Source: an uncultured Clostridia bacterium (GTDB lineage Bacteria > Bacillota > Clostridia > TANB77 > CAG-508). Taken from it: DNA of 43,514 nucleotides. Under the pieces are notes generated by a model. The model was not told where the DNA came from and did not search any database. It was given only the letters and a program-made list of their open reading frames with translations. Shown piece by piece: positions 2,819 to 41,146 of the stretch. The translations under genes were made by a program, and so were the position numbers. The stretch lies in NCBI GenBank assembly GCA_944391895.1, contig CALXVF010000001.1:1-43514 (forward strand). Direction: 5' to 3'. The first letter of the stretch is position 1. Every line of letters starts with the position of its first letter.

Positions 2819-4414
2819 TTATTTAATTCTTTCAAATAATGGTAAAATATTATCTAATATAATTTCTTTTTGTATTTCTACTGGTTTCCATTTAGTAATA
2901 TCTATATTCAAATATTTACTTAAACTTTCAGAAGAATCTGGCATAACTGGTTCAAGTAGATTAGATAAATTTGCAATAATATAAGTACAATTATATATAA
3001 CTTTATTGAATTTCTCCATATTTTCTTTATAAAGAATCCATGGTTTTTCATCATCATAATATTTATTTCCAAACTCGATTAAATTAATTATTTCTTGTAT
3101 TGCATTTCTAAATTCTAATTTTTCTATATAATCACTGACTGCACTATAAGTTTTTTCAACTTTATCTTTTATGTCTTTTTCTACTGTATTTATCATTATT
3201 TTTTCTAATCCTTTAAAATTAAGTGTTCTATTAACAAAATTGCCATACTTATTAACTAAATCAGTATTATGAACAGTTTTAAAATCTTCTAATGAAAAAT
3301 TACTATCCTTCTTTTCTGGGCCATTACTAATAAAATAATACCTTATAGAATCTATATTATATTCATTTGCTAATTCTAATATTGTAATTCCGTTTCCCTT
3401 ACTTTTAGAAATTTTTTCATCATTGATATTTAGATATTCACAAGATACCATTTTATCCGGTAATTTCATATTATCTTCCATTGCTAACAATAATCCTGGA
3501 AGTATTATACTATGAAAAATAATGTTGTCTTTTCCATGAACCATATACATCAATGTTTGTTCATTTTTCCAATAATTTTCCCAATTCAAATTATTTTCTT
3601 CACAATATCTCATTGTAGTTGTTATATATCCTAGAACTGCCTCTATCCAAACATACATTTTTTTGTTTTCATAGCCTTTTATTGGGACATCTACTCCCCA
3701 ATCTAAATCTCTTGTAACTGCTCTATCTATTAATCCTTGCTTTAAATATTTCAAAGTTTCATTCTGAGAGTTTTTTCTCCAATTAGCATGATTTTGCTCA
3801 TAATATTCTTCAATCTTATTTTGTAGTTTAGTTAGCATTAAATAAAGATTTTTATTTTTTTTCTCTATTACTGTTGTTCCGCATTCTTGACATTTTGCTT
3901 TTTTCAAATCTTCATCATTTGGATTATATCCACAGTCGCACTCTTCACCTTTTGTTTCTTTTCCACAATTCGGACACTGCAATATTAGTTCCCTATCTGC
4001 TAAGAATTTATTGCATTTTGGACAATATGGTTGTAAATCTTCCTTCTCAACTATATATCCATTATCATAAATTCTTTTAAAAATTTTTTTAACTTCCTCT
4101 TTGTGATATTCCTCTTCTGTCTTCGTATACAAATTGTAGGAAAAATTCATTTTATTAAATGCATTCTTAAATTCCATATGATATTGTTCACATATTTCTT
4201 TTGGACTCTTTTTCTCTTTTTTTGCCCTTATAGTAATTGGCGTTCCATGACAGTCTGTTCCTGAAACATATATAACATTATCTCCTAGTTTTCTATGATA
4301 TCTAGCCAAAAAATCTCCTGGCAATAATGCAACTAAATGTCCTAAATGTAAAGAACTATTTGCATATGGCCATGCACCACCTATTATTATGTTTCTACCC
4401 ATAATGATTTTCAT
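2819..4414 (-). CDS. metG: Methionine--tRNA ligase, short form (531 aa, no C-terminal tRNA-binding/dimerisation domain), embedded in the operon
   Basis: HIGH motif as HLGH (AWPYANSSLHLGHL); KMSKS motif as KISKS; connective-peptide zinc knuckles CPKC..CPNC..CDC..CQEC. The start overlaps the upstream HAD gene by 20 nt. Confidence 0.9.
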   Translation of the reverse strand: MKIIMGRNIIIGGAWPYANSSLHLGHLVALLPGDFLARYHRKLGDNVIYVSGTDCHGTPITIRAKKEKKSPKEICEQYHMEFKNAFNKMNFSYNLYTKTEEEYHKEEVKKIFKRIYDNGYIVEKEDLQPYCPKCNKFLADRELILQCPNCGKETKGEECDCGYNPNDEDLKKAKCQECGTTVIEKKNKNLYLMLTKLQNKIEEYYEQNHANWRKNSQNETLKYLKQGLIDRAVTRDLDWGVDVPIKGYENKKMYVWIEAVLGYITTTMRYCEENNLNWENYWKNEQTLMYMVHGKDNIIFHSIILPGLLLAMEDNMKLPDKMVSCEYLNINDEKISKSKGNGITILELANEYNIDSIRYYFISNGPEKKDSNFSLEDFKTVHNTDLVNKYGNFVNRTLNFKGLEKIMINTVEKDIKDKVEKTYSAVSDYIEKLEFRNAIQEIINLIEFGNKYYDDEKPWILYKENMEKFNKVIYNCTYIIANLSNLLEPVMPDSSESLSKYLNIDITKWKPVEIQKEIILDNILPLFERIK

Positions 4415-7888: not shown

Positions 7889-9367
7889 CTATTGAGAATT
7901 AATATTTAGTCTATTTTTTATTATATTTTTGATATATTCAATTAAATCATCTTGATTTTCTTCTGTTATATTATCATTACCTGACATATATCTTAACGGA
8001 TATAAATTTTTTCCTTGTTTTATCCTTCCGTTATCGTCATTAATCGAAAATTGATGCAAGAAGAACTTCCCATCCTCATCCATTATTCTTTTTATTGTTT
8101 TATTTATCTCATTAATTTTATCAACAGAGTAGCCACTCGGTGCATACATAAACATAACTGAATTTATATCAACATCATTTAGTACTATAAACCCATTTTT
8201 TATTAATTTTTCAGCAAATTCTTTAGCCATTTCATGTCTTTTTTCTATTATCTTTCCTATATCTTTTACTCCAATATTTTTTATTACACACCATACTTTA
8301 AATGATAACCAACTTTTTGATCCGATAAATGGTGTTACTTGCCCAAATGCAAATGGTTCTTGCATAATTAAGTCTGATGTTGTAGTTATTAATTTTAAGT
8401 TTTCACTATTTTTTAAAAGTAACGCACTAACTGTATATGGTGTCATTAAAACTTTATGTGGATCTGTAGAAATGCTATCAAATTTTTCTATGCCGTTAAT
8501 TTTTTCTTTCATTTTTTCACTAAAACCTAATGAAAAGCCATGACAAGCATCTGCATGAAGCCAAATATTTTCATCATATTTTTTTACAATATCAGCTACT
8601 TTTTCTAAATTATCTATTGTCATACTTCGACTATCACCAACATATGCAACAACAGCCATAACTTTTCCAGCATTTTCTTTAATTGTTTTCTCTAATTCTA
8701 TTAAATCATACTTATAATTTTGTGTAGGAACTTCTAATACATTATCTCCACATCCTATCCACATCAAACTACTTTTTATACTATAATGACCTATTCCCTT
8801 TGGGATAATAACTTTAAACTCTTCTGGTCTTTTGATTCCTTCTTTCATAGTATTCTTTTTATGATTTTCTCTTGCTAATAACATTGCTATTGCATTACTA
8901 CCTGTTCCACCATAAGTTATAATTCCACCAACATCCCATATATTTTTTATATCCTTTTTATTTCTATATCCTACAATTCTTCTTAGCCATTGTATCAATG
9001 CAATTTCTATATATGTACCTATCGGCGCACAAAAACTAGCATTTATTAAATTTTGTTGTAAAAAATCCGTTAATAACGCACCCGAAATTCCTGCAATAGA
9101 ATTACCTGCATCTGGGAAACCCATAAAATTATTTGATGAGAAATTAGTACAATATGGTAAAATATCATCCTTTATTTCTTTAATAATATCATCCATGCTT
9201 TTTCCTTCTTCTGGTAATTGGAACAGTTGATTTTGAATTTTTTCAAAATCAACTGTTTTAAGTACAACCTCGTTTTTTAATTTGAACTCTATTCCTAAAT
9301 TGATAACTTCATTAAATATTCTTTCGGCATAATCTCTATTTTTCCTATTTAATACATTTTTATCCAT
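7889..9367 (-). CDS. Group II pyridoxal-phosphate-dependent amino-acid decarboxylase
   Basis: GGTGSNAIAMLLARE, HADACHGFSL and the PLP-lysine motif STDPHKVLMTPY (S-x-D-x-HK). Length 492 aa. Confidence 0.85.
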   Translation of the reverse strand: MDKNVLNRKNRDYAERIFNEVINLGIEFKLKNEVVLKTVDFEKIQNQLFQLPEEGKSMDDIIKEIKDDILPYCTNFSSNNFMGFPDAGNSIAGISGALLTDFLQQNLINASFCAPIGTYIEIALIQWLRRIVGYRNKKDIKNIWDVGGIITYGGTGSNAIAMLLARENHKKNTMKEGIKRPEEFKVIIPKGIGHYSIKSSLMWIGCGDNVLEVPTQNYKYDLIELEKTIKENAGKVMAVVAYVGDSRSMTIDNLEKVADIVKKYDENIWLHADACHGFSLGFSEKMKEKINGIEKFDSISTDPHKVLMTPYTVSALLLKNSENLKLITTTSDLIMQEPFAFGQVTPFIGSKSWLSFKVWCVIKNIGVKDIGKIIEKRHEMAKEFAEKLIKNGFIVLNDVDINSVMFMYAPSGYSVDKINEINKTIKRIMDEDGKFFLHQFSINDDNGRIKQGKNLYPLRYMSGNDNITEENQDDLIEYIKNIIKNRLNINSQ

Positions 9368-12462: not shown

Positions 12463-12541
12463 AAAAAAATTGTATATTTAAAATTTTATAGTTACTTTTA
12501 GTTTAGGAAACAAGTAACCTTAAATTTTAAAATATACAATT
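12463..12541 (-). terminator. Long AT-rich hairpin terminator candidate after the AI-2E permease gene
   Basis: AATTGTATATTTAAAATTT pairs with AAATTTTAAAATATACAATT (19 bp, one bulge). It encloses an inner GTTACTT/AAGTAAC stem, and a T-run follows in the minus sense. Confidence 0.4.
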
Positions 12542-12571
12542 TCTATTAATTCTTAAATTTTTTCCACTTTT

Positions 12572-14593: not shown

Positions 14594-14631
14594 TAAAAAA
14601 ATCCAATAGCATAATAATATTACACTATTGG
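14594..14631 (-). terminator. Rho-independent terminator candidate after the G5-domain gene
   Basis: CCAATAG, a 15-nt loop, CTATTGG, followed in the minus sense by TTTTTTTATTT. Confidence 0.5.
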
Positions 14632-14638
14632 ATATATA

Positions 14639-15812: not shown

Positions 15813-16370
15813 ATGGGCTGGATTATTTTAGCAATTGTAGTTGTAATTGCTATTATACTTGTTGTCATATACAATAATTTAGTTACATTAAGACAACGTG
15901 TACAAAACGCATGGAGTCAAATAGATGTTCAACTACAAAGAAGATTTGATTTAATTCCTAATTTAGTTGAGACTGTAAAAGGATATATGAAACATGAAGA
16001 GTCAACTCTTACTAAAGTAACTGATTTACGTTCTTCATGGGCAAAAGCATCAACTGTAGAAGAAAAGGCTAATCTAGATAATGCTCTTTCTGATACTTTA
16101 AAAACTATTATGGCTGTTGCTGAGAATTATCCTGATTTAAAAGCTAATCAATCATTTAATGCTATGCAAGCAGAACTTTCTGAAACAGAGAATAAAATTG
16201 CTTATTCAAGACAGTTTTATAATGATACAGTTACAATGTATAATACTAAATTAGAGACATTTCCTTCTAATTTAGTAGCAAATATGTTTGGATTCAAAGC
16301 ATCTACATTATTTAATGTAGATAATGAAGAAGCTAAAAAAGCTGTAAAAGTAGATTTTGGAAATAACTAA
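15813..16370 (+). CDS. lemA: LemA family protein
   Basis: N-terminal TM segment, then [42 protein letters not shown] at 15813 follows AAGGAGG. Confidence 0.85.
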
Positions 16371-16375
16371 TTTAA

Positions 16376-16477
16376 AAATTCACCAATTTTTTTCTATTTC
16401 AAGCGAGCGAAAGCTTGGAGTAAGCTGTGCGCCACGTCCTCGTGGCGTGAAATAAGAAAAAAATATTGGTGAATTTT
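16376..16477. repeat. Copy A of a GC-core element nested in a long AT-rich hairpin; fills the lemA/tatD convergent spacer
   Basis: The arms AAAATTCACCAATTTTTTTCTATTTCA and TGAAATAAGAAAAAAATATTGGTGAATTTT pair with two bulges. The core at 16402-16447 contains the box GCGAAAGCTTGGAG (16407-16420), a 5-bp AGCTT/AAGCT hairpin and a 7-bp CGCCACG-tcct-CGTGGCG hairpin. Confidence 0.6.
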
Positions 16478-16478
16478 A

Positions 16479-17258
16479 TTATTTAGCTATTTGAAAAACT
16501 CTTTCTGCATTTTCATATGTTAATCTTGCAATTTTTTCTTCACTCATTCCTTTGACTGAAGCTATTTTTTTCACAATATATTTTAAATTTATTGAATTAT
16601 TTGTTGTACCTCTAACAGGTTCAGGTGCTAAATATGGACTATCTGTTTCTATAAGCATTCTATCTGTCGGTACCATTTGTATTATTTCATCAGCATTTTT
16701 TGAATTTTTAAATGTAACTGGTCCTGCCATAGAAATATAATACCCAAGTTTAAGTGCTTCTTTTACTAATTCTCTATTTAATGGACAACAGTGGAAAATT
16801 CCTTTATTTTTTACTGTTTTTTCTTTAAGCATTGTAATTGTATCCATCACTGCATCTCTAGTATGAATTACAATCGGTAGTTCATATTTATTAGCTATGT
16901 CTATTTGCTTCGAGAATGCCTCATATTGGATTTTTTTATCTATATCATAATGATAGTCAAATCCTATCTCTCCAACCGCCAAAATCTTTCCTGAGTTCAA
17001 ATTGTCCATAATAATTTTGTCTATCTCTTCTATGTCTTGTTGCCAGTCTTCACCTAAATCATTTGGAGATATTCCTGCTGTTGTATATATAAATGGATAT
17101 TTTTTTGATAATTCTAGGTTTATTTTTGTTCCTTCTAAACTATATCCGGCACTAACAATTCTTGTAACACCTTCATTATATACTTTATTTATGATATCGT
17201 CTCTTTCTTCATCAAAACGATAACTATCATAGTGTGCATGTGAATCAAAATATTCCAT
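16479..17258 (-). CDS. tatD: TatD family metal-dependent DNase/hydrolase
   Basis: N-terminal FDSHAHYD, EIGFDYHY, VIHTRDA and ETDSPYL motifs. Confidence 0.9.
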   Translation of the reverse strand: MEYFDSHAHYDSYRFDEERDDIINKVYNEGVTRIVSAGYSLEGTKINLELSKKYPFIYTTAGISPNDLGEDWQQDIEEIDKIIMDNLNSGKILAVGEIGFDYHYDIDKKIQYEAFSKQIDIANKYELPIVIHTRDAVMDTITMLKEKTVKNKGIFHCCPLNRELVKEALKLGYYISMAGPVTFKNSKNADEIIQMVPTDRMLIETDSPYLAPEPVRGTTNNSINLKYIVKKIASVKGMSEEKIARLTYENAERVFQIAK

Positions 17259-19950: not shown

Positions 19951-20061
19951 CTTTACCTCCATATACTTTTATTCATATATAATATATCAGTTTTATGTGT
20001 TTTTTTCAATAGATTTACAAAAAAATTGAGCTTCAAGGAACATCCTCAAAGCTCACATATC

Positions 20062-22664: not shown

Positions 22665-22697
22665 TACAAAAAAACGAGACTAGAATTCTAGTCTCGC
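22665..22697 (-). terminator. Rho-independent terminator of the surface-protein operon
   Basis: Perfect palindrome CGAGACTAGAATTCTAGTCTCG at 22675-22696, followed in the minus sense by TTTTTTTGT. It begins 7 nt after the stop codon. Confidence 0.7.
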
Positions 22698-22703
22698 TAT
22701 TTT

Positions 22704-25700
22704 TTATTTATTTTTTAGTACTTTCTTTCTAATTAAGAATATACTTCCGCCAATCAATACAGCTATAACAAGTCCTATTACAATCCACATTACGTAATTT
22801 CTATTAGCACCTGTTGGTGGTAATATTAATACTTGTTGTGAACTGTCTGCGTCAGGTTCTTCAGGTGTTACTAAGTCTGATTTTGTATAAATACCTTCAT
22901 CAGGATTTGCTGGGTCTCCGACGCCTAAGCTTTGGTTTGCCATTGCTTGGTTACCAACAATAGAGAATTTCATTCTTCTACCTTGGTCATTAGACACTTG
23001 AACCATTTCAGCTAAGTTATTGTATACCATACTGTCATCTCCACTATCTGGAGTTAATGTTGAAGATAACATCATTTGAGTTGATACATTTGCCGTACCT
23101 GAACCAAATGTTTCTGGATATAGGTTTGTATCACCTAAAGCCTTTGTTGTTGTAAGAGCATTATATGTTCTTAATGTATCTGTAAATTTAGTGCTTACTA
23201 AGTTCGTATTATCTCCTATATTTGTTCCAGTATTAGTATTTTTAATTAAGTCATCAACTGTTCTAATTGACCATGTAGAATTATTACTATTTGTAGGTAA
23301 GAATTGAAGGTTATTAGATACATAATCTACTACAGTATCTGCTCTTGATGTTGATACATTATTTAAGTCATTTGGAGCATTTGATACACCTGTATAATAG
23401 AATTGATTATCCATATAATCTACTTCACCTATATTAGTTACAGTAAATGTATATATTAACTCTATTCTAGCACCATACATTAATTCTTCGTCCATGTATG
23501 TTGTGATTAATTCTGGTGTGCTTTCTGAGTTAGCTCCCATTGTTACACCTATTAATCTATATGCAGGTCCGTTATTTTCATCTGGAACGCCTAGGTAATC
23601 TGCTATATGTCCTGTATGTTCTGCATATGATACGTTAGTTACAGAATGTCCTGTATCAAATAAAATTGTACCATCTGCTAAAGTAATTCTCATATTAGTT
23701 ACTTCTTTATCCATATTTAATTGTGCAACTGGTCTTTCTGCAAGTCCAAGGTCTATATCATCTATAACATATGACATTCCATTGTTATCTCCCTGGTCTC
23801 CTGTTTCTGTTCTGTTATATTCTATTTCTGTATTTATAACACCAGTTTGAGATGTCATTGCAGTATTATCCATTAATTCTTTTATCATAGAGACTTGGTC
23901 ATTAGCATTGTTGTTAGAATTTACTTTTAATCCTGCAGCTAATACTTCTGCTCTTGAATTTACTAATGTTTGATGTGTTTCTCCATCTATATCGGTTTTA
24001 CCACTAGAATAATTATTTGAACTATCTCTAATGTTTCCTACGTCTTTAGCATCTGAAACACCGCTTTGTGTTGCACTTTCGCCAATATTGTAATAATACA
24101 TTACATTCTTCTCTGTACCATCTACATTTGTAGCTTCTCTATCAATATATTTACTAATTTGATATTTTGAGCTGCTACCGTTTACTGGAGATTGGTTCTC
24201 ATTAATAGTGATATTGTAATTTTGTTCATCATATCTTGTATATGCGTCAACACCATTGTATGAACCTGTTTGACTTACTCCTGCTTGATATGTTGTACTC
24301 TTATAATCTTGACCATTATACGATTTAGCATTTAATCCTTCAGTTGAGATAAATCCTTGTTCACCATTAACATCAGTTGTTATTCCGTTTGATGTTAATA
24401 AGCTTACAACTTCTGAACCTTCTCCTGCACTTGTTGTTAATGTAGTTTGTGTTGTATCTCCATATATAAATCTTATAAAGAAGTCTCCGGCTGGTATAGC
24501 CTTAAATGCGTATTGTCCTTCTTCTGTTATATCATATCCACCAACTGCTGTTGCACCTGGTCCTGTGATAATTGGAGCTACTGTTCCAATTTGTCCACTA
24601 TAGTATCTTCTACTTCCCGAAGAACTTGAACTATCTACATCAACCCAGTTACCATTTTCATATCTCTTAGCATACCATACATATTCTCCTAAGTAGTTTC
24701 CTGTTGGACTACCTGCATCACTAGCATCAACTTCTTGTACTAATTCTACTAACTGAACTGTTACACCGTTAATTTTTGCTTCTCCAGAATCGTATCTACC
24801 ATTTCCTACTGCTGCTTTTCCTGAAGCTTCAGTTCTATTATCTTCGAATACATATCCTGTAAATGTTCTTTCATCTGCATCACTTTGTGGAAATACTAAT
24901 TTAATGTTTGGAGCCTTATCTGTATCATCCTCTGTTCTATTTGAAACTGGATCATCATCAATTATTAGGTCACCATCATTATCTATATCGTCATCACTTA
25001 AGTTACCAACACTTGAGTCTAAATCAATTACACCAGCAACGTCTCCTCCTACATCTTCATCTATAGTAGAATCTCCAGAATCTAATTCGTCTGGAATTGT
25101 TGCTCCATCTTTATAGTATGTTGAGTATCCATTTATTTCTGCAATATTACGTTTTCCAACGCCTTTTTCTGCGCCGCTGCTTACGTTTACATCCATTTGA
25201 ACACGTCCATCCATACCATTTTCGTCAGTATGTGTTTTAACTTTTAATGTTAGATATACGAATGCCATTCCTCCATTTGTAGGAAGTGCTTCATTTCCAT
25301 TTTCATCAGTTATTCCACTTAGGTATAATGGTTCATAGTAATTTGTAAGTGTTGTATCTCCTCTACCATTTGATAATGTAGTGCTTGTAGATACATCTAA
25401 ATCACCTATTCTATCTCCTGCCCTATCTCCTACATAAGTATTTTCACTAATTATTGGATTGTTTTCATCAAATTCATATTCGTTTGAGTCATAGTAATCT
25501 ACTATTTCATTTACTATAGTATCATATGATGCTGATTGATTTCTAACGGCTATTCTATATGTTACATATACTTGTAGGTCTTTAGCATCTGTTCCACCAT
25601 TTGCTCCATAAATACTTCCATCATATAGATATTCTGATTTACGTATTTCTCTAGTATAACGATAATCTCCATTATATAGATAATCTGCTGCTCTTACTGA

Positions 25701-27887
25701 AATCTTCCATGCTCCATCATCATCAATATCCGCATCTTTCTTATTATATTCGTATTCATGTGTTTTACCATTTACTCTGACAATTGCCTTGTAAACGTCT
25801 TTTTGAAGTCCTAAATCTGCTGTATCTCTTAAATATAATCCGAAATCTACATTTCTACTTTGGTCTCTATCTTTAGTATATAGGTTATCATATCCTAGTA
25901 GTGAACCGTCTTGAGGATTGTCTATGTCTTCTAGTAAGAAAACATTTTCCTCTGGATAGTTTATTGTATATGCACTAATAAGACAATCTTGAATATATTC
26001 CCAGATATTATCTTGTTCTTGACTATCAACACCTATACTGCTAAGCTCACTCTTGAAGTCTCCTTCTATATCATTATATTCCATTGCTTGCGTATATTTA
26101 TCTATATACGTATTTTCCATAGAGTCTTTATTAGTCATATCATAGTCATTTCCATATGTAGCTAATTCCTTAAATATATCCCATGCATCACAGAATCTAA
26201 ATGCACCTTCATTTATATCTGCATTTGTTCCCGATGAGCCACTATATGATATATAGTCACCTCGTGAGTTCTTTATTTTTTCGTAAAAACTATATACTTT
26301 CTTCCAGCCACCGTCTTGATAGTTATCTGGTGATGAATCTATTGTCTCAAATTTTAGATTTAAATCTTCCCTATCACTATCTCTTTCTCTAGCTGTCGAA
26401 TATCCTCCACTTAAATCATTTTTATAATAAGTGTCTTGATATACCATTCCGTTGTATATGAATCTTACATAATATTTATGCATTGGGTTAATATTTTTGA
26501 ATCCATATGCTCCATATTGGTCTGTAGTTGTACTACTTACAAAAGTATCTGTATTTGCATCATATAATTCTACTTGAATTCCTGCAAATTTTGATTCAGC
26601 TCCATCGTTGAATCTTCCGTCCATATCACTTTCTTTTGTTAAGTCACTTAATTCTTGCCATACATATCCACCAATGTACATATCTACATCAAATCCTTGA
26701 CCAGGACTTTGTAGTGTAGACCAGTTTGGAGAACAGTCATATATTTCTACCATTGGTTGTATACGACTTGTTATTCCTGCTGCATTACCTTCATCAATTG
26801 TAATATCTCCTACAATATCTCCCATAGTAGGTCTATGATCAAAGGAACCATCATAATCAAATTCAAGATGCCATGATCTTGAGCTTTTTGAATCTGATAT
26901 ATCAACTCCTATAACTATATCTTCATATGTATAAGTATAATATGTAGAATCATCTATTCCGTCTCCATCAGAATCATAATCATGACGATGACTCACACGA
27001 GTATAATCTTCTATTTTATAACTTATATTATTAAAATCTAAGCTTTCAGGAGTATATTTATGTACTGTTGCACTCATGCTAGATATATAATCTACATCTA
27101 TTGTAAAGTCTCCTGTATAATCAATTTCTCCATCATTGTTTGGTTGAAATTGTATGTAAAATTCTTCATCATTTACAAAGTCTGGAAAGTCAATTTGGTT
27201 TCTTGAAGAATTTAGGAATATTGGATTTGTTCCATCTAATCCAGATATACCTTTAAATTCCGCAAATCTAGTAGCATCAGAATAAGCTTGATTTCCTGTT
27301 CCTATAATTTCATTATATAAAATTTGTTTTGCCTCATCGTCTCCTGCGTTTACAGTTAATTTATATGGTCCTATAGTATATGTCTTATTGTTTTGGTCAA
27401 CCATCATTTTTAAATCATTGTAAGTAATTGTAAATAATGGATTACTTCCTAGTTGAGAAAAGATTTTATAATATACTGTTCCATATTGATATGATCTAGC
27501 CTCTACTTCATCTGACATTCCTGCTGTGCTAAAAGGTGGAGAATTAGATTCAAGTACAGTTGATGGGTTGTTCCATTGCATAGAAGCCCATACTGCATTC
27601 TGTACACCTTCTGGATCATTTGCACTTATTTCACTTACCCAAGCTGCGTAAACAGATGATGGTTCTGGATCAGATATGGAACTTTCTGAAAAGTCCATAT
27701 AATCTTCACTTTCTCCATTTCCTATAAAAAGTAAAGCTTTACTCTGATCCATACAAAACAAATCATCTTCAATCTCATATGCTTGAGATTCATATGGGAA
27801 TGTTCTAGCACTTACAGTTCCCTGAAACACCAACAATGCTATTATACTAATAAACAAAATTATTAATTTTTTATATATTTTTCTCAT
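22704..27887 (-). CDS. Giant (1727 aa) LPXTG-anchored surface protein with SdrD-B/Cna-B-like repeats, acidic Ca-binding-type motifs and an N-terminal thioester-domain-like motif pair
   Basis: Signal peptide; C-terminal LPPTG, hydrophobic segment and RKKVLKNK tail; GYVFEDNRTEASGKAAVGNGRYDSGEAKINGVTVQL and GGYVWQEL...FAGIQVELYD (SdrD B-like); DSDGDGIDD and DNDGDLIIDDD; N-terminal LFCMD and VQNAVW. Confidence 0.8.
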   Translation of the reverse strand: MRKIYKKLIILFISIIALLVFQGTVSARTFPYESQAYEIEDDLFCMDQSKALLFIGNGESEDYMDFSESSISDPEPSSVYAAWVSEISANDPEGVQNAVWASMQWNNPSTVLESNSPPFSTAGMSDEVEARSYQYGTVYYKIFSQLGSNPLFTITYNDLKMMVDQNNKTYTIGPYKLTVNAGDDEAKQILYNEIIGTGNQAYSDATRFAEFKGISGLDGTNPIFLNSSRNQIDFPDFVNDEEFYIQFQPNNDGEIDYTGDFTIDVDYISSMSATVHKYTPESLDFNNISYKIEDYTRVSHRHDYDSDGDGIDDSTYYTYTYEDIVIGVDISDSKSSRSWHLEFDYDGSFDHRPTMGDIVGDITIDEGNAAGITSRIQPMVEIYDCSPNWSTLQSPGQGFDVDMYIGGYVWQELSDLTKESDMDGRFNDGAESKFAGIQVELYDANTDTFVSSTTTDQYGAYGFKNINPMHKYYVRFIYNGMVYQDTYYKNDLSGGYSTARERDSDREDLNLKFETIDSSPDNYQDGGWKKVYSFYEKIKNSRGDYISYSGSSGTNADINEGAFRFCDAWDIFKELATYGNDYDMTNKDSMENTYIDKYTQAMEYNDIEGDFKSELSSIGVDSQEQDNIWEYIQDCLISAYTINYPEENVFLLEDIDNPQDGSLLGYDNLYTKDRDQSRNVDFGLYLRDTADLGLQKDVYKAIVRVNGKTHEYEYNKKDADIDDDGAWKISVRAADYLYNGDYRYTREIRKSEYLYDGSIYGANGGTDAKDLQVYVTYRIAVRNQSASYDTIVNEIVDYYDSNEYEFDENNPIISENTYVGDRAGDRIGDLDVSTSTTLSNGRGDTTLTNYYEPLYLSGITDENGNEALPTNGGMAFVYLTLKVKTHTDENGMDGRVQMDVNVSSGAEKGVGKRNIAEINGYSTYYKDGATIPDELDSGDSTIDEDVGGDVAGVIDLDSSVGNLSDDDIDNDGDLIIDDDPVSNRTEDDTDKAPNIKLVFPQSDADERTFTGYVFEDNRTEASGKAAVGNGRYDSGEAKINGVTVQLVELVQEVDASDAGSPTGNYLGEYVWYAKRYENGNWVDVDSSSSSGSRRYYSGQIGTVAPIITGPGATAVGGYDITEEGQYAFKAIPAGDFFIRFIYGDTTQTTLTTSAGEGSEVVSLLTSNGITTDVNGEQGFISTEGLNAKSYNGQDYKSTTYQAGVSQTGSYNGVDAYTRYDEQNYNITINENQSPVNGSSSKYQISKYIDREATNVDGTEKNVMYYYNIGESATQSGVSDAKDVGNIRDSSNNYSSGKTDIDGETHQTLVNSRAEVLAAGLKVNSNNNANDQVSMIKELMDNTAMTSQTGVINTEIEYNRTETGDQGDNNGMSYVIDDIDLGLAERPVAQLNMDKEVTNMRITLADGTILFDTGHSVTNVSYAEHTGHIADYLGVPDENNGPAYRLIGVTMGANSESTPELITTYMDEELMYGARIELIYTFTVTNIGEVDYMDNQFYYTGVSNAPNDLNNVSTSRADTVVDYVSNNLQFLPTNSNNSTWSIRTVDDLIKNTNTGTNIGDNTNLVSTKFTDTLRTYNALTTTKALGDTNLYPETFGSGTANVSTQMMLSSTLTPDSGDDSMVYNNLAEMVQVSNDQGRRMKFSIVGNQAMANQSLGVGDPANPDEGIYTKSDLVTPEEPDADSSQQVLILPPTGANRNYVMWIVIGLVIAVLIGGSIFLIRKKVLKNK

Positions 27888-27901
27888 ATTCTCCCTCCCT
27901 T

Positions 27902-30900
27902 CTATATTTTATTTAGGACTCTTTTTTTGATAATCCATACTGCTACGCCTATAATAGCAAGTACTCCTATGGTAATTCCGATAAAAGAAGCTACTTCTCT
28001 ACCAGTTCCTAGTGTGATTAATAAGTCCGCATAAGAAATATCATCTTCACCATCTTGTTTATTTCCTGCTGTAGAGTCTCTATCTTCTAATCCATATTCA
28101 TTATATGATTTACTTATTTCTACTAAATTATGTACTGTTCCTGTATTTTCTCCAGTCATCTTTCTGGTTAATACTAAAGTTACTGTTTTGCTCTCTCCTG
28201 GGTTTATAATCGTATTAGCCAAGCTTGTTGTATAAAGGTTTCCATCACTAGCCATATACCAGTTATTATTTAATTCAGAACTAAATGCCATTCCTTCTGG
28301 TAAATAATCAACTATTTCTTCTGCATATCCTGGAATTTCACCTTCATTTGTAACTGTTATATTGTATTCTACAAGTACAGTTGTATCTTCAATTCTTGTA
28401 TTATATAAATCAATCTTTCCAAAAGAATCATTAACTTCTTGTACAATTGTTTCTATATTAGGATTTGTTGCTGTTACTCTTGAAATTGTTTTGTCAATAC
28501 TTAAATCAAAGTTTCTTATTCTTGATAATCCTAAGTCTAAATTATAGAAATTGCTATTAGTAATTGTAAAGTTATCTGTTGCGGCAACTTCTTTCCCATC
28601 TAGAGTTGCATTTACAAAATCTGAATTTTCAGATTCTGAAATTCCTTCTGCATGATAAACTGTTACTCTATATATACTTGTATCAAATTCTGCTACAACA
28701 TTATATTGTCCAGGTTTTACATTATTAAATGTATATCTTCCATCTTCTCCAGTTGTCATTACTAAATCATTTCCTGAAACGTCTTTTGCTATTGCTCCAG
28801 TAGTAGAATCATATAACATAACTCTTATATTAGCAAATCTAGGTTCTTCTGAACTTCTTCTTCCATCATTATTATCATCAATCCATACATTACCTGTAAC
28901 TCTATATGTACCATCTATTGAAGGTTCATCTGACCCACCTTGCTCATAGTCTCCAGTTCCTTGGATTCTTACACTTACAGAGTTAATTGAAACTTCATCT
29001 CCATCTACTATTTGTAATGTTGGTTTATTTTCCACTGTAGTTTCTTGTCCTTGTGCAATAGTATTTGCTCTTGCTCTAATCGTAGCTCTAGCATTTTCTC
29101 CTGCTTTCAAAGTGAAGTTAGTTTTTATGAATCCACCTGTTGAACTTGCAACTTCTTGTCCATTAACAACTAATCTATAATTAGCAAGTCTTAAGCCACT
29201 TGGAAGAGTATCTACAAATGTTAATCTAACATCAGTATCTCCTCTATTTTCAATATCTACATAAAACTCAAGTTGGTCTGTATCTAGCATTGTTCCATCA
29301 GGAAGATTTGTTGACTGTTCTGTATAAATATCTACTTTTGAAGAATAGTATGAAATAGAATTAGAAAATTCTTCTTGTCCGCCATCATAAGTTGCACTAG
29401 CAACTACACTAGCATCATTTGAAAGCTCTCCTGAAACTCTAGCATAGAACTGAATACGTACTGTTCTTAAAGAACTAAGTTGTCCAATTGGATAGCTTAA
29501 TATGTTAGTTTCTCTATTATAGTATTCCTCATACTCTGTTCCATAGTATTCCATTCCTTGAGGAAGTTTTAAATTAAGTACTACATTATTTTTTTCATCT
29601 CTATTTACATTTTCTAAAGTCGCATAGAATGAGAAAACATCACCTGTTGATACTTTTCCTTCTACATCTGCAATTAAACTTAATCTTAATGTTCCTTTTG
29701 TATTATGGAATGAATATTCTAATACTTGTTCAGGTGTTTGATCTGACACAACTTTAAAACTTGTTAGTGTTTGATATGGGTCTTCTGTTTCTTCCGTTTC
29801 TTCTGTATCATCAATTATTTCAATATTTCCTACATTAAATTCAAGTTCTTTCTCTTCTCCAGCTCCTAAACTTTCTATTGTTTGAACCTGTTCTGTAAGT
29901 TCATAGTTTAATACATAACTTCCTGGTCCTCCTGTAGAACCTTCTTGGTAAACTAATGCTGCTAATTCGTCTGGCATTGTTTGAGTTACTTTTACATTTG
30001 TTGCTGGAACATCAGCATTATTTTTTACTTTTACTCTAAATTTGATATATTGTCCTTCTTTAATATCTGCTCCATTTGCTATTTGAGCTCCTGTATTAAA
30101 ATCATAAGCTGTAATTTCTGCTGTAACATCTGGTTCTAATCCTGTTGTAATTCCAACTGGTGTTGCTGCAACAACATTTTGGTTTGTTCCTTCTGCTGCA
30201 TCATTATCATAATATATCCCAAAATTTGATTTTACTGTATTGTTGTATTGTAAGTTTGCTGGAACTGTTACATTATAATTTAAGTTAAATCTTGTTGTAT
30301 TTGTCATAGCTCCATCTAATACTATCAAATAAGATTTTGCATCTGCTGTATAATCATTTGTCCATCCATTACTTGAATTTTGTAAATCAGCATCTGCATT
30401 TCCATTAGTAGAATAATATATAGTTCCTGTTATTCCGTCTAAAGTAATTCCACTTGCTAATTTTGTATCAAAATTGCTTCCTAGGTTTTCATTAGTTCCA
30501 ACTTTTGTATTTCCTGAGAAAGGAATTCTTCCTAATACCTTAACTCCTGTTGCATCATTTCCTAGGTTATTAACTATTGTTCCTGTTACTTGCATTGTTT
30601 TTTCTGAAGAATTTGCTGCTATTCTTCCAATTTCTTCGTTTCCTTCTTGTGAAGTAACTTTTTCATCTCCATTATATCCAGTTAAAGAATTTATTGTAAC
30701 AAATCCTGTAGGTGCAACAACATTTACAGGAGCTTGTACAGAGTTTGTAGCTGCTTCTCTTTGAACTGAATAATTATTTTGATTTGTATAATCTAATGTA
30801 ATATTTGTTTCTTTACTTGGTGCTAAATTATCTAAAGTTAAATCAACTACTAAACGGATTACTGTTCCTTTAGATACAGATTGAGTTGCATATTTTGTTT

Positions 30901-32722
30901 GTAATCCATTTAAAGATAAGTATATAGTATTTCCTTCTACTCTAAATTCATTTTGTGTTAATTCTTCTTCATATAATAATTTTGCATCTTTTAATTCAAT
31001 ATTTGTTACCTCTTCAGGTAATCTAATCATTATTTCTGGATTTTGATATAAAGCATCTGTTATATCATCTCTTTCTAGTGTTGCTGTGATAATAACATCT
31101 TCATTTTCTACTACTGTAGAAAGGTTATTGTTGCTAATTTCAATACTTGCTTTTGATGTAGGTTCTTCTAATGTAATTGTTTTAGTAGCTTCTTGATTTA
31201 TTAATATTCTTGAAGTCATACTTGTAAAGCTTTGAATTTCTTCTTTTGAAAGATTTAATTCACCTGAGATTGCTTTATCTGCATGAATTGTTATATCTCC
31301 TTCAGATACTGGTTTGCTAAATTCAAAAGTAATTTTTGAAGAATTTACATCTAATTCTAATTTATCTTTATTTAGAGTTCCTATTAATGTTCCATCTTCT
31401 TTTAAAACATTAATGCTACCTGATTCTCCAAGTACTTTTATAAGTTCTTCTTGTGAAACACTAATTTTTTTAGTGTATACAGAATTACTTATATTTTGTT
31501 CATTAAATAATTCTCCTAAATCTTTTACAGTTACCTTATCTAATGCTTCAGCTAAACCAATATTTATTTTGTAATCTTCAGAAAATTCTGTTTCTTTCTT
31601 TCCTTCACTAGTATTTATGTTATTATACATATACCCTTTATTTAGAGTTTCTACATTACTTGTAATTTCTGCTGTTACAATATCTCCAATTTTTCCATCT
31701 ATTGTATAATCATTTTCTTGTGTTTCATTTGTAAAGCTCATACCATTTATTAATGTAGTATTTGCTGTCACTTTTGATGTAACTGTTGTAGCTTCTTCAT
31801 TCATGTTTACATCATATAAATATGTAATAACAAATCTATCTGCTAGTTCTTTATTCCAAGCAATTTTTCCTTCTTCATCTTCTGGATTATTTACTTTAAT
31901 TGTAATTGTTCCAGTATTTTCATCATAGGTCCAATTTTCATTTGAAAAGGCTGTTCCGTCTAATACTCCATTTGTATTAGCTGTATCTATTGCATTTATA
32001 ATTATTTTAGAAGGTTTATTTCCAGACAACTCTGGAACAGTAACCAATAATTCCTTAGAATCAATTGGCATTTTCGCATCTTTTAATTTATCACTTAGAA
32101 TAACACTTAACATTGTTTGATTATTATATGTTAAATAACGAATAACACTTTGAGATGTTTCACTAGATAAAGAATTTTCATCTACTGTCCAAGATAAGTT
32201 TTGTACTAATTCTTTTTCTACTTTTCTTTCTTTGTTATCTTCATTAACATATGTTGCTTCTAATATAACCTTACTTTCTCTACCCCAAGTATCTTTAGAT
32301 ATATTGTCTTGCTTATCTAAAGTAATTGGAATTGCTAAGTCGATAGTTTGTCCTGCACTAATCATATTTAGTTCTACTCTATCTTGAGAAATACTTTTTA
32401 TTCTCTCATCTTCTATTCCGTCAGTTTTTAAAATATAATTATTGTTTTCTAGTCTAATAACTATATCTTTTAAATATCCTGTATTCTCAACACTTGTAGA
32501 AAGATAAAGTTTATTTGCATCAGAATCAATATTTGCTGTATACGAATATTGATCATGAGAACTATCATCTCCTATTGTTGCATTAAATTTTACATTTTCT
32601 TGGTTTGTGTTGTTATTTTGTTCTAAAAGATTAGCTGCATAAACCCCAGTTGTAATAAACTGAGTTCCTAACAACAACATAACAAGCAAAATAGCAAAGA
32701 TTTTGTTAGTTATTCTTTTCAT
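27902..32722 (-). CDS. Giant (1606 aa) surface protein with DUF11/Cna-B-like repeats and a variant C-terminal sorting signal
   Basis: Signal peptide; TGNVWIDDNNDGRRSSEEPRFANIRVMLYD...GRYTFNNVKPGQYNV (SdrD B-like); VTVTNEGEIPGYAEEIVDYLPEGMAF (DUF11-like). The C-terminus has TLGTG, a hydrophobic segment and a KKRVLNKI tail. Confidence 0.75.
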   Translation of the reverse strand: MKRITNKIFAILLVMLLLGTQFITTGVYAANLLEQNNNTNQENVKFNATIGDDSSHDQYSYTANIDSDANKLYLSTSVENTGYLKDIVIRLENNNYILKTDGIEDERIKSISQDRVELNMISAGQTIDLAIPITLDKQDNISKDTWGRESKVILEATYVNEDNKERKVEKELVQNLSWTVDENSLSSETSQSVIRYLTYNNQTMLSVILSDKLKDAKMPIDSKELLVTVPELSGNKPSKIIINAIDTANTNGVLDGTAFSNENWTYDENTGTITIKVNNPEDEEGKIAWNKELADRFVITYLYDVNMNEEATTVTSKVTANTTLINGMSFTNETQENDYTIDGKIGDIVTAEITSNVETLNKGYMYNNINTSEGKKETEFSEDYKINIGLAEALDKVTVKDLGELFNEQNISNSVYTKKISVSQEELIKVLGESGSINVLKEDGTLIGTLNKDKLELDVNSSKITFEFSKPVSEGDITIHADKAISGELNLSKEEIQSFTSMTSRILINQEATKTITLEEPTSKASIEISNNNLSTVVENEDVIITATLERDDITDALYQNPEIMIRLPEEVTNIELKDAKLLYEEELTQNEFRVEGNTIYLSLNGLQTKYATQSVSKGTVIRLVVDLTLDNLAPSKETNITLDYTNQNNYSVQREAATNSVQAPVNVVAPTGFVTINSLTGYNGDEKVTSQEGNEEIGRIAANSSEKTMQVTGTIVNNLGNDATGVKVLGRIPFSGNTKVGTNENLGSNFDTKLASGITLDGITGTIYYSTNGNADADLQNSSNGWTNDYTADAKSYLIVLDGAMTNTTRFNLNYNVTVPANLQYNNTVKSNFGIYYDNDAAEGTNQNVVAATPVGITTGLEPDVTAEITAYDFNTGAQIANGADIKEGQYIKFRVKVKNNADVPATNVKVTQTMPDELAALVYQEGSTGGPGSYVLNYELTEQVQTIESLGAGEEKELEFNVGNIEIIDDTEETEETEDPYQTLTSFKVVSDQTPEQVLEYSFHNTKGTLRLSLIADVEGKVSTGDVFSFYATLENVNRDEKNNVVLNLKLPQGMEYYGTEYEEYYNRETNILSYPIGQLSSLRTVRIQFYARVSGELSNDASVVASATYDGGQEEFSNSISYYSSKVDIYTEQSTNLPDGTMLDTDQLEFYVDIENRGDTDVRLTFVDTLPSGLRLANYRLVVNGQEVASSTGGFIKTNFTLKAGENARATIRARANTIAQGQETTVENKPTLQIVDGDEVSINSVSVRIQGTGDYEQGGSDEPSIDGTYRVTGNVWIDDNNDGRRSSEEPRFANIRVMLYDSTTGAIAKDVSGNDLVMTTGEDGRYTFNNVKPGQYNVVAEFDTSIYRVTVYHAEGISESENSDFVNATLDGKEVAATDNFTITNSNFYNLDLGLSRIRNFDLSIDKTISRVTATNPNIETIVQEVNDSFGKIDLYNTRIEDTTVLVEYNITVTNEGEIPGYAEEIVDYLPEGMAFSSELNNNWYMASDGNLYTTSLANTIINPGESKTVTLVLTRKMTGENTGTVHNLVEISKSYNEYGLEDRDSTAGNKQDGEDDISYADLLITLGTGREVASFIGITIGVLAIIGVAVWIIKKRVLNKI

Positions 32723-33811: not shown

Positions 33812-33956
33812 TTTTTTGTACATCTTTCCTGAATAAATAAAATATGGTTTTAAATTCTCGGTGCAGGGACGCACCTTCAGGTTCACTCAGGCTGCGCCAT
33901 TCGCTCTCCTTGAATTTAAAACCATATTTTATTATTCAGTAGATATAGTAAAAAAT
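33811..33956. repeat. Copy B of the GC-core element nested in a long AT-rich hairpin; fills the convergent spacer upstream of the minC 3' end
   Basis: A perfect 21-bp stem joins 33837-33857 to 33912-33932, extended outward by 1+6 bp across a one-base bulge and then a further 7-bp A/T segment. The core at 33858-33911 holds the box (minus sense GCGCAGCCTGAG, 33897..33886) and the GGTGC-agggac-GCACC hairpin (33860-33875). Confidence 0.6.
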
Positions 33957-40981: not shown

Positions 40982-41146
40982 TTTGCTATGATTCACGCAA
41001 TTATGTAAAATGATTTTAAAATGTATATTCGAAGATTTTTTGTTTCTTGCTGTCGGACATAAAGTCCTCCAAGCTGCGCGAAACTGTAAAATCTTGAATA
41101 TACATTTATTTATATTAATTTAATAATGGTTATGAATCGTAGCAAA
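40982..41146. repeat. Copy C of the GC-core element nested in a long AT-rich hairpin; fills the mecA/pcrA convergent spacer
   Basis: The outer 14-bp stem joins 40982-40995 to 41133-41146 (one G-U). The inner stem AAATGTATATTC(G)AAGATTTT at 41018-41040 pairs with 41088-41107. The core at 41041-41087 holds the box (minus sense GCGCAGCTTGGAG, 41079..41067) and the GGAC-ataaa-GTCC hairpin (41055-41067). Confidence 0.6.

Follow-up and report, generated by a model that had tools for sequence, protein, structure and literature searches.

Two convergent intergenic regions of the DNA studied here, a stretch of 43,514 nucleotides from an uncultured Clostridia bacterium (the window), carry long hairpins, named copies A and B, that belong to one family of dispersed repeats. 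We regard A and B as non-autonomous palindromic intergenic repeats, MITE/REP-like and restricted to a species or genus, which would also serve as bidirectional terminators, and we give this reading a probability of about 60%. The A/B family has not been described before; it exemplifies a known type of small repeat and does not constitute a novel type of system. The family has reached the 3′ ends of many genes, and between closely related strains its copies have been gained, lost, tandemly duplicated, and internally deleted, and they occur in either orientation.

According to the preferred reading, the repeated unit would be the whole hairpin, consisting of AT-rich terminal inverted arms and an asymmetric GC-rich apex. 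The arms measure ~27 nt in members of the B subfamily; A-subfamily arms have ~14 nt, to which an outer extension specific to the locus is added. The apex contains two boxes, GAGCGA and GAGYGAGCC, as well as a small hairpin displaying GUCCCU. Judged from position and sequence, each copy would act as a bidirectional intrinsic terminator for the flanking genes, because it occupies the spacer and T-runs follow its long stem on either strand. The A/B elements were not flagged by a scan with a simple terminator consensus, as their loops are longer than 8 nt, but they do lie past stop codons and have T-runs on both sides. The complementarity of the stem would be maintained either because the hairpin is under selection or because the arms undergo concerted repair, and the conserved apex may be the recognition target of a putative mobilizing or binding factor.

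Copies A and B and their repeat family

The initial annotation of the window had described three convergent spacers, each filled by one long imperfect hairpin. This description was confirmed: the arms of all three hairpins (A, B, and C) were located, each spacer forms one long hairpin on either strand with RNA fold z-scores of −7.0 to −8.7, and none of 200 shuffled sequences folded as well. Overall, the window has a GC content of 28%, and its two most GC-rich 40-nt stretches (0.62 and 0.68 vs 0.28 overall) lie in copies A and B. Close matches to the window were metagenome-assembled genomes (MAGs) of uncultured gut Clostridia, with a protein at the TatD locus that is 97% identical in CAKNIZ010000005. 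Exact-protein look-ups of MecA, of the 89-aa ORF, and of the first gene of the window returned no record. A search of the window for tRNA and tmRNA genes found none, and the Rfam check proposed earlier, carried out on the whole window at gathering thresholds, matched no family.

Copy A fills the spacer at 16371-16478 between the convergent LemA and TatD genes, whose stop codons (16368-16370 and 16479-16481) border it. It contains an inverted repeat of 24 nt with 88% complementarity (arms 16375-16398 and 16454-16477), folds with −43.4 kcal/mol (z −7.5), and scored 110 bits (E 1e-19) against the covariance model of the family. The outer part of its 5′ arm, AAAATTCACCAAT, was seen at the LemA/TatD locus only, and the inner part, TTTTCTATTTCA, is common to copy J at another locus. 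The 3′ arm runs into a T-rich sequence (Table 1); the bottom strand likewise terminates in TTTTTAAATT, and a terminator scan of the spacer detected no terminator besides copy A. Copy B lies between a 199-aa ORF and the convergent MinC gene. Its arms (33836-33857 and 33912-33933) are complementary at 22 of 22 positions, its fold has a z-score of −8.7, and the covariance model gave 98.8 bits. The arms of copy B recur with 87% identity at an unrelated locus (copy E, L004 7110-7219).

Table 1. Positions of the hairpin elements and their parts in the window, and of related copies and sites in other sequences (L numbers)
Feature	Position	Strand	Basis
Copy A, full palindromic repeat element, A subfamily	16375..16477	+	Fold, inverted repeat, covariance model
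5′ arm of A	16375..16403	+	Alignment A1, sequence of copy J, arm versus core identities
GAGCGA box of A	16405..16410	+	Family-invariant columns, 13/13 copies
GAGTAAGC box of A (family consensus GAGYGAGCC)	16418..16425	+	Alignment A1
Apical 3′ hairpin P3 of A, CGCCACG-TCCT-CGTGGCG	16430..16447	+	Helix 2 pairing across copies
3′ arm of A, then T-rich run TTTTATTATTT	16449..16477	+	Sequence, fold on both strands
Copy B, full element, B subfamily, long form	33829..33943	-	Arms, fold z, covariance model
P3 hairpin of B, minus strand GGTGC-GTCCCT-GCACC	33860..33875	-	Sequence, alignment, consensus fold
GAGCGA box of B (plus strand TCGCTC)	33901..33906	-	Sequence, alignment
Copy C, second repeat family; core GTTTCTTGCTGTCGGACATAAAGTCCTCCAAGCTGCGCGAAAC, arms AAATGTATATTCAAG	41019..41107	.	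Four near-identical loci
Outer inverted repeat TTTGCTAYGATTCA enclosing C	40982..41146 (40982-40995, 41133-41146)	.	I3, 14 nt, 93% complementary
Long hairpin, C-type arms AAATTGTATATTT, unrelated AT-rich apex	12463..12546	.	Sequence comparison
Plain intrinsic terminator, SpoIIE/WG-repeat spacer; unoccupied state of the D/E site	20027..20055	-	Strain comparison
Element arm termini: AAAAATAAAWATATGRTTTTRAATTC, or ..ATTCACAGC			
A/B full copies	Window A, B; L004 D, E; L051 F, J, K; L065 G, G2; L067 B, B2; L077 H; L091 I; L005 A1, A2		nhmmer + cmsearch
GGGACG sites (examples)	L014 3655, 4198; L015 10178; L021 412; L023 2746, 8851; L027 20057; L113 2450-2520		

The A/B family was found at 12 or more independent loci in the species of the window and one close relative; this count, like that of four loci for the C family described below, rests on ~150 kb of the species. 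A covariance model, R1, was built from 13 copies, and nhmmer together with R1 added further members, including truncated and tandem ones. The family reached E values of 1e-15 to 1e-17 with the HMM and 99 to 117 bits with the covariance model. Copies D and E in L004 were found by a scan for GC islands and lie in a SpoIIE/WG-repeat spacer. The pattern GAGCGAN{15,45}GCGTYCCTGCNNCGRGAA, derived from B, D, and E, was run on viral and metagenome contigs. It had no match in the viral contigs and 48 in the metagenome contigs. Seven of these were in low-GC contigs, all from sample ERZ1643247 with a coverage of ~4.3 to 4.9x, and the single sample and single coverage indicate one genome, across which the refined motif set GAGCGA ... 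GCGTYCCTGC..CGRGAA was repeated. The remaining 41 matches, in contigs with 38 to 73% GC, are taken to be chance. No member was found with the A/B models in ~490 kb from other genera of the clade, and searches of plasmid and phage collections returned nothing similar to the A/B element sequence.

The A/B elements are 93 to 125 nt long, typically ~110 nt, and no ORF of 80 aa or more spans any copy. All copies are intergenic, mostly 0 to 40 nt past a stop codon, and occur in both orientations; relative to the nearest upstream gene, four are sense and seven antisense. Read in the plus-strand sense of copy A, they consist of an AT-rich 5′ arm ending in TTCAAG(G), the box GAGCGA, an optional 12-nt mini-hairpin, the box GAGYGAGCC, a stem of 5 to 7 bp closing a GTCC(C)T loop (hairpin P3), GRGAA, and the 3′ arm. 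The mini-hairpin is present in the long forms and lacking in the short forms, and GAGCGA was invariant in all 13 aligned copies. On the A/B alignment, RNAalifold retained just two helices, those of the long stem and of the 3′ apical hairpin. A second small apical hairpin, from which a three-way junction in copy A had been proposed, was dropped by RNAalifold, and the short-form copies do not have the segment at all; as this hairpin is not conserved, neither is the junction.

Pairing of the stem is strongly maintained in the family. In the MAFFT alignment, 93.2% of the stem cells were paired compared to 74.4% in shuffles, none of 500 shuffles reached 93.2%, and slid partners gave 36 to 56%. The compensatory changes for which the initial annotation had suggested building a covariance model were present, with both-sided changes in 17 of the 32 pairs. 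For P3 (helix 2), 97.8% of the cells were paired, and three of the seven pairs had changed on both sides; its stems read CGCCTCG/CGAGGCG in J, GGTGC/GCACC in B, and GAAGC/GCTTC in E, with the loop GUCC(C)U. Compensatory changes also separate orthologous copies within the species, namely GGTGC/GCACC and GGCGC/GCGCC (the latter being P3 of the B ortholog in another strain group) and AAATTC/GAATTT and AGCTTC/GAAGTT. On the GAGCGA strand G-U mismatches exceeded A-C mismatches, with ~10 vs 3 independent events, a difference that is not significant alone.

Mean identity was 64% for the arms and 74% for the cores, and in 33 of 36 pairs the core was the more similar of the two. Arms of the B subfamily, ~27 nt long, are 60 to 95% identical between unrelated loci. 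In the A subfamily, the common part of the arm is its inner 14 nt. Copies A and J have cores that are 93% identical and identical inner 14-nt arms, whereas their outer arms are unrelated, each pair being perfectly complementary (AAAATTCACCAAT/ATTGGTGAATTTT in A and TTAGAATAAATCATG/CATGATTTATTCTAA in J). B-type arms without a core ("empty carriers") were not found. The earlier statement that the arms are unique to each locus thus holds within the window, but beyond it the arms of B return in E and those of D and F are 95% identical. Similarly, the contrast drawn between a conserved apex and a non-conserved stem applies to the A/B cores, but the whole hairpin is repeated in the case of B and C; the contrast arose because one member had been seen from each of three subfamilies.

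Variation of gene-end hairpins between strains

TatD loci were taken from GTDB genomes, and the spacer following TatD was compared across them. Copy A was retained, with point changes, by strains of the same species, and in the strain group of L004 and L062 it carries a 16-nt internal deletion between short direct repeats. L005, whose TatD is 84% identical, contains two tandem A copies, the intact one being opposite in orientation with respect to the flanking genes. In L006, which is collinear with ~80% DNA identity, the A site is occupied by a short plain terminator, AAACCGAGAG-TTTAT-CTCTCGGTTT, between the same two stop codons.

Copies D and E lie in a stretch of ~330 nt that is missing from the window, from L104-L106, and from L006. 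L104-L106 are three further assemblies of the strain type of the window, and in them the D/E site is unoccupied. Solitary parts of elements, namely a C-type arm, AAATTGTATATTTGAA, and a GCTGTGAATTGCAAT end, are also present in the ~330-nt stretch (L004 6895-6945 and 7060-7111), which therefore looks like a mosaic of element fragments. Its boundaries were too diverged for target-site duplications of D and E to be called.

For copy B, 10 assemblies with identical MinC were available, seven of which have the form of the window and three an inverted apex plus a decayed tandem copy. The latter arrangement was also present in L067 and L113, which brings the total to five independent assemblies, so that an assembly artefact can be dismissed. 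The C site is replaced in L113 (2445-2521), L115, and L117, all with identical PcrA, by a perfect palindrome with 33-bp arms, TTTTCAATTAGGGACGGTCCTTTTTCAGAAATT-ATGCAAA-(complement); in this L113-type arrangement the spacer is 77 nt long. Gene-end hairpins are therefore replaced or rearranged within ~95% nucleotide identity.

Two adjacent very large ORFs of 1727 and 1606 aa, with a raised GC content of 0.30 to 0.35, occupy 22704-32722, and an indel region is seen here in comparison with L067. Orthologs of the second ORF have CLIPPER and SdrD_B domain matches, and its length differs between strains (1606 and 1610 aa).

Copy C and other gene-end hairpins

Copy C was previously thought to share its apex box with A and B. 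The relation of A and B to each other was borne out by the GAGCGA box, the HMM, and the covariance model, but C proved to stand apart. The box GCGMAGCYTGGAG, searched with up to two mismatches, matched C alone, at 0.24 matches expected; the box as originally written was thus not enriched and does not tie C to A or B. Against the A/B profile, nhmmer gave E values above 10 for C, and the A/B covariance model gave 26 bits (E 0.09) on the opposite strand, which is the level of a generic AT hairpin. In local alignments the C core did not score above shuffles when compared with the A/B cores (the copy in the window had a z of 1.5, the remaining C copies a z of at most 0). Copy C belongs to a separate family of the same architecture, which is not demonstrably related to A/B and is either unrelated or very distant.

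The arms of copy C (41019-41046 and 41080-41107) lie in the spacer between the convergent MecA and PcrA-UvrD genes, which C and its outer repeat TTTGCTAYGATTCA fill jointly. The four loci of the C family have near-identical cores and arms. One copy (L077 535-688) has the 7-bp direct repeat AATTGGT on both sides, as a target-site duplication would be, and we regard this as a transposition-like trace in the C family. In the same sequence, a 6S RNA gene (L077 257-443, minus strand, 111.8 bits) has a C-family element on each side. A third type of core, X, containing GTTCTTGCG..TCGCTTC.GCTCC, was found in L091 (3382-3528), and a similar element occurs in a distant genus (L024 12043-12139 and 12242-12281). 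Outer repeats resembling that of the window copy (..ATTCACAGC) also surround further C and X copies. The motif AAATTCACAGC was considered as a general terminal repeat and rejected, as the window has 18 matches vs 20 expected; yet it flanks several C and X copies elsewhere.

Three hairpins that had been cited for comparison, as AT-rich or as a simple palindrome without the shared box, matched their description (12463-12546, 14601-14633, and 22665-22706). In L062 (10470-10530), the ortholog of the first of these is a different hairpin, AAGGTTACAATTC...GAATTGTAACCTT, with which it has short segments in common but in swapped order.

Hairpins past stop codons were also encountered in other genera. 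In L006-L037, the hexamer GGGACG is concentrated at the apex of AT-rich hairpins just past stops, in sense orientation. Of its 23 occurrences in 489 kb, 16 lie in non-coding sequence, which makes up 16% of the total, and 11 lie no more than 45 nt past a stop. GGGACG, which is the complement of the A/B GTCCCT loop region, may represent a clade-wide terminator-apex signal. In L014, an inverted repeat of at least ~44 nt, AGGGACGTTTCCTTTTGCTCGAAAACGAGCAGTTGGGACACATC, follows each of two convergent genes ~540 nt apart (3655-3700 and 4155-4208). L012 contains two inverted GC-rich segments of ~50 nt, 5.4 kb apart and with matching flanks (3835-3882 and 9220-9275), both with GCAGGGAC; one possibility is that they delimit a larger element or an invertible segment in this other genus.

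Comparison with known repeats and alternative explanations

With a size below ~400 bp, the absence of coding sequence, terminal inverted repeats, and dispersed copies, A and B have several of the features by which MITEs are recognized. Correia/NEMIS of Neisseria, ERIC/IRU of enterobacteria, and RUP, BOX, and SPRITE of Streptococcus pneumoniae are MITE-type hairpin repeats near gene ends (PMC10969869). Like Correia, ERIC, RUP, BOX, and SPRITE, the A/B elements are multi-copy, small, and devoid of coding sequence; their terminal inverted repeats let the whole element fold as a hairpin, and the elements are intergenic, present in both orientations, clustered, nested, and variable between strains (PMC10969869). 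Repeats of this class are often co-transcribed at 3′ ends, and SPRITE is terminator-like (PMC10969869). A/B differ from the Correia/ERIC/RUP class in having a GC-rich and asymmetric apex whose conservation exceeds that of the termini, and in their host, which belongs to an uncultured lineage of low-GC Clostridia; neither a clean target-site duplication nor, in ~150 kb of the species, a parent insertion sequence was seen for A/B. To our knowledge, the A/B family has no sequence relation to Correia, ERIC, RUP, BOX, or SPRITE.

The RAYT-mobilized REP/BIME/REPIN repeats resemble A/B as gene-end palindromes with a small conserved hairpin module that form tandem and inverted clusters, and terminator or mRNA-stabilizing roles have been proposed for them. 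REPs, however, are 20 to 40 nt long with a GTAG/CGTC tag and a conserved stem, whereas A/B have an asymmetric core of ~50 nt within a long AT stem. Alignment A1 contained no conserved GTAG/CGTC column; its conserved boxes were GAGCGA, GAGYGAGCC, and GTCCCT. Similar in kind are also the GC clusters of yeast mitochondria, short GC-rich structured elements in AT-rich intergenic DNA that are polymorphic within a species and for which mobility was inferred (PMC4478555), and the hairpin-forming GC-rich elements of other AT-rich organelle genomes (PMC2800124). Unlike A/B, these organelle elements are eukaryotic and do not have long AT terminal arms in the unit, and the sequences are unrelated. The TwoAYGGAY motif (RF01731) of gut Clostridia and gammaproteobacteria likewise combines an apex of several hairpins with a long, AT-rich outer stem that closes it, and occurs in gut metagenomes. 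Membership in this family was rejected, as the score was 24.6 bits vs a gathering threshold of 43, the AT stem alone aligned, and AYGGAY loops are absent. Otherwise, permissive Rfam scans of A and D/E returned only generic hairpin (miRNA precursor) models and gave no support to hammerhead-like or group II domain V-like readings of the core. In chloroplast DNA, small inversions of hairpin loops between inverted repeats are known. The A and B loci are comparable in that the segment between the inverted arms occurs in both orientations among close relatives; unlike the chloroplast inversions, which are single-locus mutations, A/B form a repeat family in which independent re-insertion may have occurred.

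Several observations weigh against MITE-like elements. For A/B there is no clean pair of empty and filled sites with a target-site duplication, the flanks being AT-rich and the D/E boundaries untidy, and in ~150 kb of the species we saw no transposase and no parent element with matching ends. The termini of typical MITEs are their best-conserved part, but here the arms diverge faster than the core, and A and J combine a 93%-identical core with unrelated outer arms. Moreover, the covariation of P3 and the mild G-U excess are suggestive of folding on one specific strand; a DNA element that is purely double-stranded would have no need of it. Alternatively, the mobile unit might be only ~75 nt long, comprising the GC-rich core and short inner arms, and insert preferentially at the apex of existing palindromes or terminator hairpins, also those of other elements; the outer arms would then be host DNA. 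The pair of A and J, with a common unit and unrelated, yet complementary, outer arms, would fit this. The nesting of C, C2, and X within outer inverted repeats, the enclosure of D by an inverted copy of the neighbouring terminator arm, and the side-by-side clustering of elements (I and C3 in L091, J and K in L051, D and E in L004) point in the same direction. Such apex insertion is nevertheless unlikely in our view: the 27-nt arms of the B subfamily accompany the core to unrelated loci, no orthologous site had an empty-loop hairpin with matching arms, the "empty" sites in L006 and the window hold unrelated short terminators, and A or J without the common unit would be a loopless palindrome, an abnormal terminator. 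Of the four options that the initial annotation had listed, the data favour the two that invoke repeat elements, one targeting terminator loops and the other REP-like; the former gains some support from the nested copies and from the comparison of A and J. Thus, the earlier observation was partly confirmed and its interpretation partly supported.

The other two options assign a function to the apex. It may be a 3′-UTR RNA module in which P3 presents the C-rich GUCCCU loop and the AT stem, which covaries, both closes the structure and acts as terminator; which of two convergent mRNAs carries the module would then be decided when the hairpin flips. UCCC seed loops are known from Firmicute small RNAs, and the GUCCCU loop resembles them. 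The constancy of this loop above a covarying stem, the compensatory changes even between orthologous copies within the species, the preponderance of G-U over A-C on the GAGCGA strand, and the concentration of the loop complement GGGACG just past stops at hairpin apices in other genera would all fit an RNA role. The lack of an orientation preference (four sense vs seven antisense copies) argues against a simple 3′-UTR RNA function, the orientation at the same locus differs between strains, much of the core is missing from short and truncated copies, and no Rfam family matched, and we rate an RNA module as rather unlikely. The core might instead be a DNA recognition site displayed on terminators, as in uptake signals, or, in the strict sense, a REP-type hairpin served by a RAYT/IS200-like HUH enzyme on single-stranded DNA. 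HUH Y1 enzymes recognize a conserved small hairpin with flanking conserved boxes, which is the format of the A/B apex; the one-strand G-T bias is consistent with folding of a single DNA strand, and AGGGACGNNYC occurs five times in other genera vs 0.5 expected. Given an alignment without conserved GTAG or CGTC tag, a family restricted to one species group rather than a genus-wide signal, and single asymmetric cores unlike the inverted short-signal pairs of DUS/USS terminators, this proposal seems to us very improbable. The covarying P3, the constant C-rich loop, and the mild one-strand G-U excess could reflect a strand-specific role of RNA or single-stranded DNA. In an extended scenario, which we hold to be distinctly doubtful, the GC-rich apex would be a selected, structure-constrained module rather than passive cargo, with GUCCCU on one strand and AGGGAC on the other, that is spread on self-terminating palindromes and switches orientation at a given gene end between strains. 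If this were true, the orientation switch would decide which convergent mRNA bears the C-rich loop, and the module may tie into the putative clade-wide GGGACG signal that related Clostridia genera carry at the apices of terminators.

Much is known about the small palindromic repeats of proteobacteria, pneumococci, and Neisseria, but there are hardly any descriptions of them from the uncultured low-GC Clostridia so common in gut metagenomes. As the A/B family shows, the gene-end hairpins of such a genome form a fast-changing and partly mobile compartment, and within 95% average nucleotide identity they are replaced, flipped, duplicated, or absent. This has a practical bearing on the annotation of terminators and 3′ UTRs in MAGs, on strain typing, and on assembly, the latter because contigs often break at these repeats. 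If the apex is functional, it would provide a handle on a putative factor that binds or mobilizes the hairpins in such organisms.
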